From assembly GCA_027307335.1 (NCBI GenBank), contig DAHUXD010000054.1:4611-68610 (forward strand): a DNA stretch of 64,000 nt. Reading direction: 5' to 3'. Made by a program: the position numbers and the translations under genes. The DNA is from Acidobacteriota bacterium (lineage in GTDB: Bacteria > Acidobacteriota > Thermoanaerobaculia > UBA5066 > Gp7-AA6). The notes under the pieces were generated by a model. That model made no database searches, was not told the DNA's origin, and saw only the letters and a program-made list of their open reading frames with translations. This document shows positions 16,056 to 59,092 of this stretch, in pieces. Every line of letters begins with the position of its first letter. Within the stretch, counting starts at the first letter, position 1.

Positions 16056-16493
16056 ATGCTCGCCGTCGGAAATCCGGCCCCCTCGTTCGACGTCCTCGAT
16101 CACAACGGCGCGCGCCGCCGCCTCTCGGACTACCGGGGAAAGAACGTCGTCCTCTGGTTCTACCCGAAGGCCGACACTCCCGGTTGAACGGCCGAGGGTT
16201 GCGGGTTCCGCGACCTCTATTCGGAGTTCCAGAAGAAGAACACCGAGATCCTGGGCGTCTCCTTCGACACCGTCGAGGAGAACGCCGCCTTCGCGAAGAA
16301 GTTCGACTATCCCTTCCCGCTCCTCTGCGACGTGCAGCGGGAGATCGGGATGGCCTACGGCGCGTGCGACGACCCGAAGGCGCAGTACGCGAGCCGGATC
16401 ACGTACGTCATCGGCCCGGACGGAAAGATCGCGCAGGCGCACCCGAAACTCACGCCGAAGACGCATCCGAAGGAGATCCTGGCGAGCTTGTAG
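16056..16493 (+). CDS. Bcp-type peroxiredoxin with in-frame UGA (16185-16187) at the peroxidatic-Cys position; putative selenoprotein. Alternative start ATG 16017
   Basis: Manual translation: ...VVLWFYPKADTPG-[TGA]-TAEGCGFRD...; canonical Bcp motif is FYPKDxTPGCTxExCxFRD, and the resolving Cys at +5 is retained; the frame stays open to TAG 16491-16493; the stop-delimited ORF track dropped both halves. Confidence 0.7.
16194..16217 (+). other. GC-rich hairpin 7 nt downstream of the in-frame UGA (candidate bacterial SECIS)
   Basis: GAGG-gtt-GCGG-gtt-CCGC-ga-CCTC read from the sequence. Confidence 0.25.
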
Positions 16494-21568: not shown

Positions 21569-21700
21569 CGCTCGCCGCGCTTCCCGCTACCGCTCGTCCT
21601 CGCGGCGGGGAGCCTGAAGGTCGTCTGAAAGAGCGGGGCGTCGGGCCTTCCGGGGGTATGCTTCGGCCTCCGGCGGCAAGCGCCGCGGGCAGGAGGCGAC

Positions 21701-22237
21701 ATGGCGAGGATCGGGGTGTTCCGCGCGGGTCTCGCGGCCGGCGTCTTCGTGGCCTCGACGGCCCTCGCGATGGCCGATGCGCCCGCGGTCGGCTCGCCCG
21801 CCCCGGCGTTCACCCTCACGTCGGACCAGGGGAAGTCCACGAGCCTCACGGACTACAAGGGCAAGTGGGTCGTCCTCTACTTCTATCCGAAGGACTTCAC
21901 CGGCGGTTGAACGCTCGAAGCCCACAACTTCCAGCGTGACCTGGAGCAGTACCAGAAGGCCAACGCCGTCATCCTCGGGGTGAGCCTCGACACCGTCCAA
22001 TCGCACAAGGACTTCTGCGCGAAGGAGGGGCTGCACTTCACCCTCCTGTCGGACCCCGATGGCAAGGTCTCGTCGGCGTACGACTCGGTCATGACCTACG
22101 AGGGGCAGAAGTACTCCGCGCGCCACACGTATCTCATTGCGCCCGACGGGAAGATCGCGAAGGTGTTCCTGAACGTGAAGCCCGGCAACCACAGCGAGGA
22201 GGTGCTCGCCGCACTGGCGAGCCTCCAGAAGAAGTAG
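21701..22237 (+). CDS. Secreted Bcp/Prx-type peroxiredoxin with in-frame UGA (21908-21910) at the peroxidatic-Cys position; putative selenoprotein
   Basis: ORFs 21701..21910 and 21980..22237 are in the same frame, separated only by the TGA; translation ...[13 protein letters not shown]-[TGA][10 protein letters not shown]...; N-terminal signal peptide; paralogous to the 16056 gene. Confidence 0.7.
21912..21936 (+). other. Hairpin immediately 3' of the in-frame UGA (candidate SECIS): CGCTCGAAG-cccacaa-CTTCCAGCG
   Basis: 9-bp stem with one mismatch, starting 2 nt after the UGA. Confidence 0.3.
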
Positions 22238-34927: not shown

Positions 34928-37900
34928 CGCAGCGGCGCCTCGCGGGAGTCGTCCTCGGCTTCGCCCTCGCCGGCATTGTCTCCGCGGCGGAGGACGGCTC
35001 GTCCGAGCTCTTCGGGAAGCCGGTCTCCTCGATCTCGTACACGTGCGACGGACCGGCCGACACGAAGGAGATCGCCGGCCTGGTCGCGTTCCGGATCGGC
35101 CGCCCCCTCACCGAGGACGACACCGGGACGACCGTCCAGAACCTCTTTGCCACCCTCGACTACTCGAACGTGGTGGTCGAAGCGGATCCGGCCCCGAACG
35201 GCGGCGTCGACGTCGTCGTGCATCTCTGGCGCGCCTATCGAGTCGCCCTCACCTTCGAGGGGCGCGCGCACCTCTCCCATCTCGAGCTCCTCAGGGCGGT
35301 CCCCCTGCAGGAGCGCGGGCCCTTCCACGCGGGCGCCCTGGCCGAGGGCGCGAGCGCGATCGCGCGCCGGCTCGCGGCCGAGGGCTACATCCACGCGGTC
35401 GTCGAGCCGGACGTCGAGTTCGAGCCGGCGACCTTCACGGCGCACGTCGCCTACCGGATCGAGGCGGGACCGAGGGCGGTCTTCGCGGAGCCTTTCTTCG
35501 ATGGCAGCGTGGCCCCGTACGCCACGGCCACTCTCGCCGAGAAGCTGAAGGTGAGGGTGGGAAAGCCTTACCGGGAGGCGAGAGCGCGGTCGGGGGCCGA
35601 GCGGCTGCACAAGTTCCTGCTCAGGGACGGGCGGTTTCGCGCCAGCGTCGACCTGATCGCCGCCGAGCCCGTCGAGGGGGGCGCGTCGATCCGCCCCGTC
35701 TACCGGATCGACGTCGGCCCGGAGTTCCGGATCGACGCGACCGGCATCAAGGAGAAGACCGTCCGCAACGAGATCCTCGGCCTGCTGGAAGGGCAGAGTT
35801 TCGACGAGGACCTTCTCGCGCAGTGGCAGGACACGACGCGGGAGGACCTGCAGCGCAAGGGCCGCTACCGCGCCGTGGTCGAGACGAAGACCGAGGGCAC
35901 GGACCCGGTGACGCTCCACGTTTCCGTCAACGAGGGCGGGAAGTTTGCCGTCGAGCGCATCACGTTCGCGGGCAACTCGTCCGTCTCGGACAAGACGCTG
36001 CAGGAGCTCATGGTCACCCGGCCGAAGGGACTGCCGTTCGTCCAGAACGGGTACATCATCGACGACGAGCTCCAGAAGGACGTCGACGCGATTCTCGGTT
36101 ACTACCAGACCCGCGGCTGGATTGGCGCCCGCGTCGAGAAGCCCGCCGTCACCGACGCCGCGAAGCCGGGGCGGCTCGACATCGCGATCCGGATCGAGGA
36201 AGGCACGCGCACGTACCTGGCCAGCCGGAAGGTCGAGGGTGCCGAGCACCTCTCCGAGGCGGACATCGACGAGATCGTCGTTCAGAAGGTCGGCGAGCCG
36301 TTCAACCCCAGCCTCGTCCGCCAGGACGGCGCCGCTCTCACGAACCGTTACTGGAACACCGGCTGGCGGGAGGCGGTCGTGCGCGACCACTGGACCCTGT
36401 CCGCCGATCGCACGAAGGCGGACGTCGTCTTCGCGGTGGACGAGGGCATGCGGACCTTCTTCGGGAAGACGATCATCCGGGGAAACGCGTACACCGAGAT
36501 GAAGCGGATCACGCGGCAGGTCGCGTGGAAGGAGGGCGACCCCTTCTCGGAGGAGAAGATCGCGGACACGCAGAGGAACCTCGCGCGCGCCGGCGTCTTC
36601 CGGTCGATCGACGTCCGGCCGCAGCCCGCCGATCCCGAGAACCAGGAACACACGGTGGACATCAACCTCTCGGAGGCGCGGCGGATCTCGCTGCTCTACG
36701 GCGTCGGTTACCAGTACGCTCCGGGCGCCAACAACCCGAACGACCCGTTCGCGACGGCCGGAATCACCTACCGCAATCTCTTCGGCCGGATGCAGTCGCT
36801 CAACCTCGAGGCGCAATACGCCCCGTTCTCGCACCGCGGCTACGGCGTGCTGAACTTCCAGGAGCCGTACCTCTTCGACACCAACTATCCGCTGACGGTG
36901 GCGGGCTTCATCAGCCGCGAGCCGATTCAGCAGGTGGACATCGACCGCCTGGGGGCGTTCGTCGAGTCGACGCGCCAGTTCGGCTTTCTCCGGGTCGGCC
37001 TCCGCTACTCGTACCAGTACATCAGTCCCACCAACCCGAACGACATCGGGACGATTGCCCTCGAGAAGTACCCGCTGTCCGCGTTTCCGGTGCAGCAGTC
37101 CGCCATCACGCCGAGCCTCCTCTACGATCGCCGTGACGACGTGCTCGACCCGCACAAGGGCTGGTACGCGTCGATGGCGGGCGGCTACGCGTTTCCGTTC
37201 CTGTCGGCGACCGCGCAGTACGGCAAGGTATCCGGGCAGGTCGCGTCCTTCTGGAGCGTTCCCGGCGGCGTGCTCGCGGCCTCCTTCCGCGCGGGCGGCA
37301 TCTACGGCAATCTCGAATCGGTGCCGATCGCGGAAAAGTTCTTCGCCGGGGGGTCGTCGTCGGCGCGCGGCTACGACACGAATCTGGAAGGCATTCCCGC
37401 GTTGCTGGATGAGAACGGAAATATCAAGGACCGGACCGCGATCACCGTCGACTACAACACCCAGGCCACGCCGCACTCGGACCAGACGCCCGGGGCGGTG
37501 CCCTGCAAGGAGCTGTATCCCGTTCAGACGCAGCAGAACCCGGTCCTCGCGCAGTACGACTGCAGTCCCGGGCCGCGCATCGTCGGCGGGAATAGCTTTC
37601 TCGCCATGGGTCTCGAGTATCGCGTCCCGATTGCCGGCAACCTCGGACTGTCGCTCTTCTACGATCTCGCCCAGGTCTGGGCGAATCCCGGAGACATCAA
37701 CTTTCACATCGGCGGCGGCGGCACGGGATTGACGCAGTCCGTCGGCATCGGAATCCACTACATGACGCCGATCGGACCGCTGCGGTTCGAGTATGGGCGG
37801 CCGGTCGTGCTCGAGACGATCCCCTTTCAGATCACGAGAACTGACCACTGCAAGGAAACCGCACCGCCGGGCTCCGCCGACGCATGCGTGATGGCTCCGG

Positions 37901-38334: not shown

Positions 38335-39696
38335 TCAGGGTTCGGCGACCGCCCGAACGCCGGCATCCCGGGGCAGGCGGCGCTCCTCCGCCGCGAGCAG
38401 CGCGCGGAGCGTCTCCGGGTCGTCCTGCGTCGAGGCGGAGAGCCCGGTGAACGGCGCCTCGGCGAGGGCCTCCCGCCACGGCAGGGCGGCAAGGCCGCCG
38501 CTCTGCAGCGCGCGGATCAGCTTCAGGGTCCGGAACGCGTCGAACCACGTGTGGAAGTGGCGGAGCATCGTGGCGGGTCCGTTCGACTTCCCGATCGCCT
38601 CGCGCAGCGCCGCGAATGCGCCCATCTTCTCGAGGCTCCCGACGAGGAGCTCCGCCCGGAAGAAGGGGTTCTCGGGCGGCAGCTCCTCGAGCGCCGCCTC
38701 GAGCCGCCCTCCCGAGCGGGCCACGGATTCGAGCGCGCGCAGCCACGCCGCGAGGTGCGCGAACGCCAGCGGGTGATACAGGCGGAAGCCCGCGAGCGCG
38801 CCCTTCTTTCCGAGGAGCTGCGACAGCGCCTTGCCCGTGCCGAACGGCACGCGATCGGAGATGCGGCCCTCGAGGAGAAACGGCGTTCCCGACAGCCGCG
38901 CGATGGGCCCGACCTTCGCGAGCTTGTCGAGGACGTAGAAGTCCTCCGCGGCGTTCTTGCGCGGGAAGCCGCGCACGGCGGCGTAGGCGAGCGGCCGCAC
39001 GGCGATGCAGCTGCCCATCGCCTGGTAGGCATACGGGGAACCGGCCCACGCGAGCCCGAGCACGTAGTAACGCAGCGAGATCTCGTAGAGACGCGCGGCA
39101 AGCGCGAGCTCCGGGTCGCGATCGAGACGGTGCTCGTAGAAGTAGATCGCCGCCGCGAGCCGCTCGTCGCGGAGGGCCCGCGTCTGATCGAAGAGGTCGT
39201 TCGCGAGCACGGTGTCCGCGTCGGTGTTGTGGATCCAGCCCGCCGAGAGGCGCCCGGCCGCGTGGAGGCGCAGGACGAAGTCGTTGCCGATCTTGCGCGC
39301 GAGACCCACCCCCTGGCCCTCCGGCAGGAAGCGTCCGGGCGCGGCGCGGTCGATCGCGACCACGGTGCCGTTCGGGTACCCGAGCGCGAGGACCGGCGGA
39401 TCGGCGGAGAGCTCGCGGGCCGTACGGGCGGACTCGACGAGGCGCGCGCTCGCCGCGCGGTTCGCGTCGTGGACCCTGGCCGGCGAGTCGGCCCGCGCGT
39501 TGACGACCACCACGACGAGAGTGTCTCCGGCCGCGCCGCGCGGCACCGAGCCGAGGGTGTCGAAGAGGCTCTGTCCCTCGCCGTAGGCCGGGACCACGAC
39601 GGCGTTGCCGAAGACTCCCTCGAGACGATCGGCCGCGGCGGCCTCGGGTTCGGCGTGCCGCGACAGGTATGCCGCGATCGGGTCCTTCGGGCTCAC
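38335..39696 (-). CDS. Hypothetical protein with GT-A-like (family-2-like glycosyltransferase) features
   Basis: VVVPAYGEGQS, DADTV (DxD-like); otherwise unrecognised. Confidence 0.35.
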   Translation of the reverse strand: MSPKDPIAAYLSRHAEPEAAAADRLEGVFGNAVVVPAYGEGQSLFDTLGSVPRGAAGDTLVVVVVNARADSPARVHDANRAASARLVESARTARELSADPPVLALGYPNGTVVAIDRAAPGRFLPEGQGVGLARKIGNDFVLRLHAAGRLSAGWIHNTDADTVLANDLFDQTRALRDERLAAAIYFYEHRLDRDPELALAARLYEISLRYYVLGLAWAGSPYAYQAMGSCIAVRPLAYAAVRGFPRKNAAEDFYVLDKLAKVGPIARLSGTPFLLEGRISDRVPFGTGKALSQLLGKKGALAGFRLYHPLAFAHLAAWLRALESVARSGGRLEAALEELPPENPFFRAELLVGSLEKMGAFAALREAIGKSNGPATMLRHFHTWFDAFRTLKLIRALQSGGLAALPWREALAEAPFTGLSASTQDDPETLRALLAAEERRLPRDAGVRAVAEP

Positions 39697-50334: not shown

Positions 50335-50742
50335 TCACCGCTGCCGGAAGTCGAGCGCCGCGGAGTTCATGCAGTACCGCAGGCCCGTCGGCTCCGGACC
50401 GTCCTCGAACACGTGGCCGAGGTGCGAGCCGCAGCGCCGGCAGAGGACCTCGGTGCGCGCCATGAAGAGGCTCGTGTCCTCCCGCGCCTTGACGCTCTCG
50501 GGCGAACACGGCGTGGTGAAGCTCGGCCACCCGGTGCCCGACTCGAACTTGGTCTGCGAGTCGAAGAGCGGATTCCCGCAGCCGGCGCACGTGTACGTTC
50601 CCGTGCCGTGGTGGTTCCAGTACTTGCCGGTGAACGCGCGCTCCGTCCCCTTCTGGCGCAGGACCCGGTACTGCTCGGGAGTCAGTCCGGCGCGCCACTC
50701 TTCGTCGGTCTTCTCGACGCGGTCGGCCCGGTCTTCGGCCAC
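50335..50742 (-). CDS. msrB: Peptide-methionine (R)-S-oxide reductase MsrB (Cys-type, zinc-binding CxxC x2)
   Basis: [13 protein letters not shown] ... [14 protein letters not shown]. Confidence 0.9.
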
Positions 50743-50786
50743 GGCGGGAATCTACCATCAACCCGGGGAGCGGAAAGTCCGCGGAC

Positions 50787-56682: not shown

Positions 56683-59092
56683 CCCTCGGTCCTCAGCGCT
56701 TCCTGGGGATCGAGCGCGGCGGCCCGGCGCGCCGGCACCGCGCAGGCGGCGACGGCGGCGCCGAGGAGCGTGACGGCCACGACGATGAGGGTCGCCGGAT
56801 CCTGGGGCGGCGTCTCGAACAGGACCGTGCGGAGGCTGCGCGAGAGCGCGAGCGCGAGAGCGCCGCCGATCGCGAGTCCGGCGAGCGCGAGCGCCAGGCC
56901 CTCCCGCAGCACCAGGCGCCAGACCTCGGCGCGGTCAGCCCCGAGGGCGATGCGCACGCCGATCTCCCGCGTGCGGCGGGCCACCGAGAAGGAGATCACG
57001 CCGTAGACGCCGATCGCCGACAGGAGCAGGGCGGCGGCGCCGAACGCGCTCACGAGGAGCGCCAGGAAGCGGGGCCGCGCGACGGTGTCGGCGACGAGGG
57101 TCGAGAGCGGGGCCACTCCGGAAACGGGGAGGTCCGGATCCGTGCGATGGATCGCGGCACGAGCCTCCGCGGCGAGCGCGGTCGGATCGACGGGTCCGCG
57201 GACGAAGAACTTCATGGTCCCGCGCGGGAAGCGCGACATCGGCACGTACGCCGCGGGCGGGGGATTGCGGTCGAGGCCGGCCTCCCGCACGTCGCCGGCG
57301 ACGCCGATGACCTCGAGGCGGTACTTCCCGAACATCAGTCCCCGCCCGACGGGATCCGCGGCGCCCCAGAGACGCCGCGCGAGGCTTTGATTCACGAGCA
57401 GCACCGGCCGGCTCTCCTCCATGTCCGCCGTCGTGAAGTCGCGGCCGCGGAGAATCGGGATGCCGAGCGCGGAGAAGTAGCCCGTCGTCACGATGACGGC
57501 CCCTCCTTCGGGCTTGACGGTGCCGAGCTCGGGCCGGCCCTCGACCTCGAAGCCGTACGCCTCGCCGCCGGCGCGCAGCGGCAGGGTCTTGCTGGCTCCG
57601 ACGGCGGAGACCCCCGGCAGCGCGCGGAGATTCGCGAGAAGCGCGGCGCGGTAGGCCGCGTCCTTGTCGTTCGCAAAGACGGATTCGGGGAGCGTCACCG
57701 ACAGCGCCAGGACCGACTGCGGGCGGATTCCGGAGTCGGCGTGCGTGAGCCGCCAGAAGCTTCGGAGAAGCAATCCCGTCCCGACCAGCAGCGCGGCCGC
57801 GAGGGCGATCTCGGCGACCACCAGGCCGCGCCGCAGGGCGACGCCCGAACGGGGGTCCGTACCGCCCCGAACGCCGGCGCCCTCGAGCGCGGCGGCGGCG
57901 CTCCGCCCGGACGCATGGAGCGCCGGCAGGAGGCCGAAGGCGACCGCGGTGCCGATGGAGAGAACGAGCGCGAACGCGACGACCCTCGCGTCCATGCCGA
58001 GGTTGGCGATGCGCGGCATGAAGCGGCCCGCTTCCGTCGCCAGGGCATCGATGGCCCAGCGCGCCGCGAGAAGGCCGAAGGCGCCGCCCGCCAGGGCGAG
58101 GAGCAGGCTCTCGGCGAGGGCCTGCCGGACGAGGCGACCTCGCGACGCGCCGAGCGCGGCGCGGATTCCGATCTCCCGCCGGCGGGTGGTCGCCTGCGCG
58201 AGCAGCAGGTTCGCGACGTTGACGCATCCGATCAGGAGCACGACGGCGACGGCGGCGGAGAGGACGCCGATGGGCGTCCGCACGCTCCGGGTCACCGCCG
58301 CCTGGAGCGGCACGACGAGCGCGCGTTCGAAGCCCTCGTTGCTCGCGGGGTACTCCCGGGCGAGCCGCGCGAAGAGGGCGTCGAGACCGGCGCGGGCGGA
58401 GTCGAGCGAGGCGCCGGGCTCGAGGCGCCCCAGCACGTTCAGCCAGCGGACCTCGCGGCGGTGCGGCACGGCGTCCTCGCCGATCGTCGAGAGGGGGACC
58501 CAGACCTCCACGTCGGACGACGGAACCTCGAACGCACCGGGCATGACCCCGACGACGCGATATGCGTGGCCGTCGAGGACGAGCGGCCGCCCGACGACCT
58601 CGGGATCGCCGCCGAACCGCCTCTTCCAGAGCCCCCAGGACAGCACCGCGACGCCGTTCTTGCCCGCCCGGTCGTCCTCGGTCCCGAAGGTCCGTCCCAC
58701 GTGCGCCGGCACCGCGAGGGTCCCGAAGAACGAGCCGGAAACGCCGGACGCGGTCAGGCGTTCCGGCTCGCCGCTTCCCGTGAGCGTGACGCCCGAGAGG
58801 TCGGGAAAGTACTCCCAGGAGGCGACGCGCTCGAGACCCGGGTGGGCCGCGGCGAGATCGTCCACGTCCTGCGGCGAGAACGAGCCGCCCGGCGCGCTCG
58901 AGTCGTGACGCACGTGCCCGATGCGGACGAGCCGCGACGGGTCGCGGTAGGGCAGCGGGCGGATCAGCACCGCGTCCGCCACGGTGAAGATCGCCACCGT
59001 GGCTCCGATCCCGACCGCGAGCGTCGCGACGATCACCAGTGCGAGAGCGGGGCGGCGCCGAAAGCCGCGGAGGGCCAAGCGCAGGTCTCCCA

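Follow-up and report, generated by a model that had tools for sequence, protein, structure and literature searches.

The stretch of DNA examined here, 64,000 nucleotides of contig DAHUXD010000054.1 from an Acidobacteriota bacterium (the window), carries at 21701..22237 on the forward strand a complete coding sequence that we read as specifying a selenocysteine (Sec)-containing peroxiredoxin (Prx) of the PrxQ/BCP type. The frame runs from ATG 21701 to TAG 22235-22237 and comprises 179 codons including the TAG, or 178 without it, with TGA 21908-21910, codon 70, as the lone internal stop. Two open reading frames (ORFs), 21701..21910 and 21980..22237, share this frame, and gene callers break the locus into a 69-aa and an 85-aa piece. 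An earlier reading of this DNA, made without database searches (the sequence-only reading), had joined the two ORFs as one frame with a single TGA between them, and translation of 21701..22237 bears this out. A Shine-Dalgarno-like AGGAGG can be read at 21691..21696 (+), 4 nt 5' of the ATG. The G+C fraction at third codon positions (GC3) of the joined frame is 0.89 5' of the TGA and 0.94 3' of it, in a window of 71% GC; such a profile across the TGA is a signature of continuous coding. We consider it very likely that the gene at 21701..22237 is functional and that its product is an exported (periplasmic) peroxiredoxin of the PrxQ/BCP type with UGA-encoded Sec at the peroxidatic site.

Fold, active site and probable export of the joined product

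The joined product matches AhpC-TSA of Pfam (PF00578, 7.9e-40) over profile positions 1-123 of 124, and Redoxin (6.5e-25). Its top NCBIfam matches are PrxQ/BCP models, every one of them scoring under its equivalog cutoff, and against the PrxU equivalog it reaches 69 bits, the cutoff being 270. Full-length homologues were returned in the thousands by protein search, the closest being 64-74% identical and, where named, from Thermoanaerobaculia or Pyrinomonadaceae. When the window protein is aligned with 15 close Cys homologues, the TGA column is the peroxidatic Cys, invariant in all 15 and embedded in an invariant FYPKDFTxGC block, and the columns of P63, T67 and R141 are invariant as well. This column alignment, together with the recurrence in other assemblies and orthologues and the syntenic TGT or TGC codons described below, is the basis on which we assign the UGA at 21908..21910 (+) to Sec at the peroxidatic position, U70, although the insertion of Sec at U70 is itself read from sequence. 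With U70 in place, the active-site motif P63-x3-T67-x2-U70 (PKDFTGGU; 21887..21910, +) has the form of the PxxxTxxU motif described for Sec-Prx (PMC13188914).

The best matches in the PDB are all BCP/PrxQ proteins, with Xanthomonas campestris BCP (XcBCP; 3gkk) at the top (E=2.4e-31, residues 24-174). XcBCP, whose structures include 3gkk, 3gkm, 3gkn and 5iiz, is an atypical 2-Cys PrxQ, and the window protein aligns with it at the active-site motif, at the Arg and at the second Cys. The aligned columns of P63, T67 and R141 include the catalytic Arg conserved in peroxiredoxins (R141, CGC, 22121..22123, +), which falls on the XcBCP Arg in ...eRsTfl.... The second Cys, in FCAKQG of XcBCP and FCAKEG of the window protein, lies 36 residues past the peroxidatic residue. 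The two proteins differ in that the peroxidatic residue of XcBCP is Cys and not Sec, and in that XcBCP is cytoplasmic and lacks a signal peptide.

This second Cys of the window protein, C106 (TGC, 22016..22018, +), located at U+36 and of the helix alpha3 type, is invariant in the 15 Cys homologues and near-invariant in 125 Sec orthologues. Cys84 of XcBCP, to which it aligns, is what we take to be the resolving Cys of that enzyme, and by this analogy C106 is probably the resolving residue. The sequence-only reading had noted the lack of a resolving Cys at +5 and had called the protein a 1-Sec type. The former is correct, the residue at U+5 being His, but the label is unlikely because C106 has a counterpart in the second Cys of Xanthomonas BCP. 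By the same analogy, a Sec-Cys (atypical 2-Cys) mechanism with a U70-C106 selenenylsulfide cycle is more likely than a 1-Sec one. U70 would reduce the peroxide and become a selenenic acid, C106 would resolve this to an intramolecular selenenylsulfide as in X. campestris BCP, and a thioredoxin-fold reductant would then perhaps reduce the selenenylsulfide, by analogy with the TlpA/ScsB-dependent PprX discussed below.

Residues 1 to ~25 (21701..21775, +) are predicted to be a Sec-type (SPI) signal peptide with an A-x-A site, Sec here denoting the export pathway. Two of its first 10 residues are Arg, 17 residues in a row are uncharged, the mean Kyte-Doolittle value is 2.0 and there is an AXA-like motif, and the whole segment falls N-terminal to the region aligned with the XcBCP structure. 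The same heuristic features are found in 28 of 28 Sec N-fragments and in at least 113 of 120 Cys homologues, and they are absent from the second Sec-PrxQ of the window (paralogue 1, see below). The signal peptide claimed by the sequence-only reading is thereby supported, as a signal-peptide-like N-terminal extension conserved across the family. What counts against it is that for the window protein the call rests on heuristics only. On balance the PrxQ of 21701..22237 is likely, judging from these sequence features, to be exported; this would occur via the Sec pathway with cleavage of the signal peptide near A23/A25. A periplasmic BCP/PrxQ, reduced by TlpA/ScsB, has been characterized in Caulobacter crescentus as PprX (PMC3322552). 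Likened by description, PprX and the window protein share the BCP/PrxQ subfamily, the N-terminal signal sequence of PprX (~20 aa) has its counterpart in the predicted signal peptide of the window protein, and the resolving Cys of PprX is at a position other than that of the E. coli enzyme, as proposed here for the window protein (PMC3322552). PprX, a Cys enzyme where the window protein is a Sec form, serves us as a functional model of a cell-envelope peroxide scavenger (PMC3322552). Pfam scans found no TlpA, ScsB, DsbD or CcdA gene, that is, no gene for such an envelope reductant, within the window.

The TGA in other genomes and its alternation with cysteine codons

The exact 69-aa N-fragment is encoded in three other assemblies, the metagenome-assembled genome (MAG) GCA_027313945.1 and two Logan run assemblies, which differ from the window by 0-4 single-nucleotide polymorphisms over up to 19.8 kb. 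Since the same TGA is present in all three, an assembly or sequencing artefact is excluded. A search with the N-fragment gave ~28 clusters of 66-71 aa, all ending exactly in ...FT(G/A/S)G, as in ...FYPKDFTGG; in these clusters gene calling stopped at the same TGA. DNA pattern scans extended the recurrence much further. The orthologue-specific pattern FYPKDxTxG-TGA-TxEAHxF matched at least 120 metagenome contigs, and among the complete orthologue matches listed the ORF past the TGA is 105-121 codons long, with a mode of 113 and a length of 108 in the window's clade. The more general pattern FYPK[D/A]xTxG-TGA matched at least 119 species-representative genomes; the matches listed span Acidobacteriota, Deltaproteobacteria, Chloroflexota, Poribacteria, Planctomycetota and others, and in nearly all of those listed the frame continues for ~100-112 codons as PrxQ. 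Two clades can be told apart among the orthologues, clade a, which resembles the window gene, and clade b (DQTPG-U-TREAHQFQVDQPKY), which is the larger one and includes a Ca. Sulfotelmatobacter MAG. Frameshifts or other stops in homologues, which the sequence-only reading had named as a sign against it, did not appear in the Sec orthologues examined.

Let us consider, nevertheless, that the TGA might have arisen by nonsense mutation or be an error of sequencing or assembly, leaving a pseudogene or a split gene with a 69-aa fragment. A change from TGC or TGT to TGA takes a single base, and the locus is indeed split into 69 aa and 85 aa by gene callers. Yet the TGA is repeated in the three assemblies, and at least 120 orthologues of 53-86% protein identity keep it together with an intact downstream ORF, the invariant Arg and the second Cys. 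GC3 stays at 0.94 past the stop, synonymous sites are frozen directly past it, and a second paralogue has a TGA in the same column. This recurrence in assemblies and orthologues rules out pseudogene and assembly error, and we regard the explanation as effectively refuted by the comparative data, with a residual chance that is close to nil.

The second paralogue, a cytoplasmic Sec-PrxQ at 16056..16493 (+; alternative start 16017), has its UGA at 16185-16187 and, in this case, a Cys at U+5. Its TGA stands in the same column as 21908-21910 (...FYPKADTPG-U-TAEGC), and identity between the two proteins is 44%, in agreement with the paralogy and the identical catalytic column claimed by the sequence-only reading. 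Downstream, at 16197-16215 (+), lies a canonical, near-E. coli-like selenocysteine insertion sequence (SECIS), GGUUGCGG[GUU]CCGCGACC. Just 1% of synonymous recodings fold as stably as this hairpin, and Sec-PrxQ genes from a range of phyla, many in number, share the hairpin type, in which G19-C23 / A19-U23 covariation is seen.

Two further contigs, L245 (1.27 Mb) and L246 (524 kb), have the gene order of the window at 72-84% DNA identity, the shared order being pheT, RNase Y, YmdB, GT2 glycosyltransferase, PrxQ-1, Trm112, ..., ADH, PrxQ-2 and onward. In both of them paralogue 1 has the TGA and an identical hairpin, and the orthologue of the 21701..22237 gene has TGT or TGC at the TGA codon. This clear alternation in syntenic orthologues answers the comparison of Sec and Cys at the catalytic column that the sequence-only reading had proposed as a check, and it shows Sec decoding in the lineage, at paralogue 1 if nowhere else. 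A neighbour-joining tree interleaves eight clade-a Sec sequences with seven Cys sequences. With the window protein, the remaining clade-a Sec forms share 74-86% identity, the closest Cys forms 73-74% and clade b ~53%.

Could the UGA be read as an amino acid other than Sec? Two routes come to mind, insertion of Cys by a tRNA-Sec-like tRNA(Cys) with a SelB paralogue, and genome-wide reassignment of UGA to sense. The former has a precedent: in some uncultured bacteria, Sec-like tRNAs have been described that insert Cys at UGA in a SelB-dependent manner. As for the latter, TGA is the stop of 23 of the 30 GC3-supported genes of the window; because it is the main, ordinary stop codon there, the genetic code is not reassigned and this candidate is ruled out, the more so in a genome of 71% GC, which is unlike the known UGA-reassigned lineages. 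Against either route stand the classical Sec/Cys character of the family and the resemblance of the paralogue's SECIS to the E. coli type, and there is no obvious rationale for using UGA plus a SECIS to insert Cys beside relatives that use TGC or TGT. We judge recoding to a residue other than Sec to be very improbable, and hold with high confidence that TGA 21908-21910 is a genuine Sec codon in a functional gene.

A few observations on the wider set of Sec-PrxQ genes may be recorded here. The base 3' of the UGA is A in 120 of 124 of these genes. The codon 5' of it is GGT in all window-clade genes (21905-21911 in the window, with the UGA and the following base), in 84% of clade b and in 56 of the 124, GGT making up only 5% of the Gly codons of the window; GGT before and A after the UGA may exert a context effect on its recoding. 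Candidatus Poribacteria MAGs (L017 357-839, L041 6867-7349 and L098) have one ORF with two in-frame TGAs 453 nt apart, each in a copy of the same short motif, which looks, from the sequence, like a tandem double-PrxQ protein with two selenocysteines. In a Planctomycetota MAG (L010) the frame past the Sec-UGA of a PrxQ-like motif runs for 362 codons as compared with ~105, suggesting a putative fusion protein.

Two overlapping hairpins downstream of the UGA

Synonymous sites directly 3' of the UGA are constrained in both clades. In clade b (94 unique sequences), codons +3 to +9 have a synonymous entropy of 0.25 bit versus ~1.2 bits elsewhere, the exception being a Phe wobble position that lies in a loop, and this freeze defines a stem CCACC/GGUGG with the loop AGUUYCA from +19 (hairpin positions are counted from the U of UGA). 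In the window's clade, 3 of 13 codons vary in +1 to +13, compared with 58 of the 89 other codons (Fisher p=0.006); each of the three variable sites lies in a predicted loop. The clade-b register is ruled out for the window, where only 3 bp of that stem survive, the rest having been lost because of Q to N and V to R substitutions. Three rare codons, GGT at -1, GAA at +3 and CGT at +9, each at 5-8% of window usage, are fixed in Sec forms; Cys forms have GGC at -1, CGC or CGG at +9 and mostly GAG at +3, with GAA kept in L246 and L247.

The window RNA can form two hairpins in this region. The one proposed by the sequence-only reading, H1, is ACGCU-C-GAAG[CCCACAA]CUUC-C-AGCGU at 21911..21937 (+), or +3..+29; the 9-bp hairpin described there is present, split 5+4 by a C.C mismatch and closed by a 7-nt loop, but it starts directly after the UGA and not 2 nt later. 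The other, H2, is UUCCAG[CGUGAC]CUGGAG at 21929..21946 (+), or +21..+38, with 6 bp and its loop at 21935-21940; it is the best candidate for a bacterial SECIS (bSECIS). The two overlap in the shared UUCCAG and are therefore mutually exclusive.

According to the bSECIS consensus, a hairpin should have a loop of 3-9 nt, an upper stem of 4-16 bp, a G as its first or second loop nucleotide, a distance of 16-37 nt from UGA to loop, and a folding energy of <= -7.5 kcal/mol, and some bSECIS classes violate it (PMC13188914). H2 agrees with the structural rules, with its 6-nt loop, 6-bp stem, G at loop position 2 and 24-nt spacing, and it resembles the bSECISearch model, of the E. coli fdhF type, in the 6-nt apical loop, the 6-bp stem and the G followed by U at loop positions 2 and 3. 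The GU is supplied by the CGT codon at +9 (5% usage). H1 fails two rules: its loop has no G and begins 10 nt past the UGA.

The distribution of the two hairpins among relatives also differs. H2 is the best simple hairpin in 13 of 13 Sec forms, always with the loop from +27 and with the clade consensus UUCCAG[CGUGAY]CUGGAG, and it is absent or degraded in 5 of 5 Cys forms. The Sec form L250 keeps both hairpins; its Q-to-E change (C24 to G24) is matched by a change of L-E to S-K, so that a compensatory pair replaces C24-G35 by G24-C34 in a 7-bp H2 with the loop CGUGA kept. The divergent Sec form L253 keeps H2 and has lost the lower stem of H1. As for the Cys orthologues, they keep 6-8 of the 9 pairs of H1, and L245 has 9 perfect bp in a shifted register. 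There is thus RNA-level constraint 3' of the UGA, and H2 is associated with the Sec state. With these data, the conservation of H1 that the sequence-only reading asked about is divided: the wobble positions of its stem are frozen in the window clade, but the hairpin is present in Cys forms and lost in L253.

Folding energy does not help H1 either. H1 is the minimum-energy fold of the free RNA, at -10.0 kcal/mol, but comparison with dinucleotide-shuffled sequences gives it a z score of -1.27, and when synonymous recodings are generated with window codon usage, 87% of them fold at least as stably as the H1 region, which rules out folding energy as evidence for it. The argument of the sequence-only reading that two paralogs, each with a UGA and a following hairpin, speak against a nonsense mutation thus keeps the shared UGA column and loses much of the hairpin, H1 being weak alone and Cys orthologues folding similar or better ones. 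When positions +0 to +11 are masked in imitation of a UGA in the ribosomal A site, H2 becomes the minimum-energy fold, an extended, bulged H2 reaching -8.3 to -8.6 kcal/mol in the masked fold.

Taken together, these features incline us to H2, and not H1, as the SECIS, an assignment that we regard as somewhat better than even and that would imply binding of SelB to H2. Several points weigh against it. H2 alone has a folding energy of only -6.0 kcal/mol, weaker than the -7.5 threshold of the consensus model, and it overlaps with the stronger, competing H1, both departures from the bSECIS consensus. Its loop starts at +27; clade b and paralogue 1 have theirs ~7-8 nt closer to the UGA and fit the bSECIS model well with loops AGUUYCA and GUU, respectively, ~16-17 nt past the UGA. 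The six H2 pairs arise in 30% of synonymous recodings and are thus partly forced by the coding sequence. The stem positions of H2 and H1 are invariant within the window clade, with ~3 independent Sec lineages sampled, and because they never vary there the covariation rests on the single divergent L250. Lastly, the stem wobble sites of H1 are frozen too, in all 11 window-clade Sec genes, where variation is found solely in the loop, and in L250, and because of this H1 has to be reckoned with.

Sec insertion might accordingly be real but directed by H1 (21911-21937), or by H1 and H2 together, instead of H2 alone. Besides the frozen wobble sites and its rank as the most stable fold of the free RNA, H1 is improved to 10 perfect bp in L250 by the same Q-to-E change, the rare codons GAA and CGT each give it one more Watson-Crick pair, and its departure from the consensus would not be unprecedented, given the exceptional bSECIS classes noted in the review (PMC13188914). 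The loop without G, 10 nt from the UGA where 16-37 nt is the consensus, argues the other way, as do the largely retained H1 pairs of the Cys orthologues and the loss of the lower stem in L253 with H2 kept. When a UGA is in the A site, the footprint of the ribosome would cover +3 to +12. The 5' arm of H1 occupies just these positions and would sit inside the ribosome. A role for H1 in directing insertion therefore strikes us as rather unlikely.

Returning to H2 as the preferred SECIS, the element most likely used for Sec insertion, H1 may compete with it or possibly act as a gate. One may picture a two-state, ribosome-gated SECIS in which H1 sequesters the 5' arm of H2; H1, which shares UUCCAG with H2, would have to melt once the UGA is in the A site, and H2 would form only then. 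SelB.GTP.Sec-tRNA(Sec), recruited by a hairpin just 3' of the UGA as in established bacterial Sec biology, would out-compete RF2. We offer such gating as a tentative idea that is more probably wrong than right; it would place the signal ~8 nt 3' of the sister-clade and paralogue position, in an exported selenoenzyme.

Sec machinery, neighbouring genes and the Sec-Prx family

It also counts against a Sec-decoding gene at this locus that selA, selB, selC and selD were not found within the 64-kb window, which lies on a 138.6-kb contig. ARAGORN found two tRNA-Val only in the window, Rfam at gathering threshold tRNAs only, and Pfam scans of essentially all its GC3-supported ORFs no SelA, SelB or SelD. 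A SelR-domain match, considered as a candidate for Sec machinery, proved to be an ordinary uninterrupted MsrB gene (50335-50751, -). A Sec-decoding trait in this genome has indirect backing from its two PrxQ genes with UGA and from the relatives in which paralogue 1 retains both TGA and SECIS. Among the loci L001-L242 collected from other genomes, tblastn with approximate E. coli SelD and SelB queries gave only the SelB of L064 and ARAGORN gave no tRNA-Sec, results without bearing on the window's genome. The SelB homologue of L064 (1138-3027), from a Candidatus Binatia MAG, is 32% identical over 641 aa to the approximate E. coli SelB query and lies a few kb from the Sec-PrxQ of that genome.

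Elsewhere in the window, three further sets of same-frame ORFs were examined as possible hidden genes with in-frame TGAs (12664/14338/15121, 47622/48945 and 50787/53313) and rejected, being distinct proteins by Pfam. Between 44161 and 63611, four MacB_PCD/FtsX permease genes, an ABC ATPase and an HlyD-type adaptor are clustered, adjoined by a sigma-54 response regulator and histidine kinase pair and by the MsrB gene (SelR domain) mentioned above. Long GC3-plausible ORFs at 35043-37732, 38335-39696 (-) and 56935-58227 (-) have no Pfam match at E<=1e-4.

Sec-Prx (PF00578, T-x-x-U) has been an established bacterial selenoprotein family since 2001, with several members per genome in some cases, three in Anaeromyxobacter, and with repeated Cys-to-Sec conversions (PMC1794560, PMC13188914). 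The gene of 21701..22237 is almost certainly a further member of this long-known family and not a new kind of system. Like E. acidaminophilum PrxU and the Prx proteins of Anaeromyxobacter, Geobacter and Syntrophus, it combines a UGA at the peroxidatic site with the AhpC/TSA fold and the PxxxTxxU motif, and it shares with the family the abundance of Cys homologues, the repeated interconversion of Sec and Cys, and a hairpin immediately 3' of the UGA. It differs from the known Sec-Prx in being a PrxQ/BCP-subfamily protein whose second Cys is of the alpha3 type, in its predicted signal peptide, and in its Thermoanaerobaculia-like acidobacterial lineage, and its SECIS candidate is placed ~8 nt farther 3' than in the sister clade b and paralogue 1. 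A literature search for Thermoanaerobaculia together with selenocysteine found no paper.

The current understanding of Sec decoding is unchanged by the window gene. What its recognition as one selenoprotein does is to correct a split annotation of 69 aa and 85 aa, and likewise in hundreds of soil-metagenome orthologues. The turnover of the SECIS inside a coding sequence, with the loop from +19 in clade b and from +27 in the window clade, makes a small, tidy example, and in the syntenic alternation of Sec and Cys nature supplies a clean pair with which to ask under what conditions Sec has the advantage over Cys. A Sec-PrxQ with a predicted signal peptide is common among Thermoanaerobaculia-like and Terriglobia-like Acidobacteriota, which suggests that abundant soil bacteria scavenge peroxide in their cell envelope in a selenium-dependent way.

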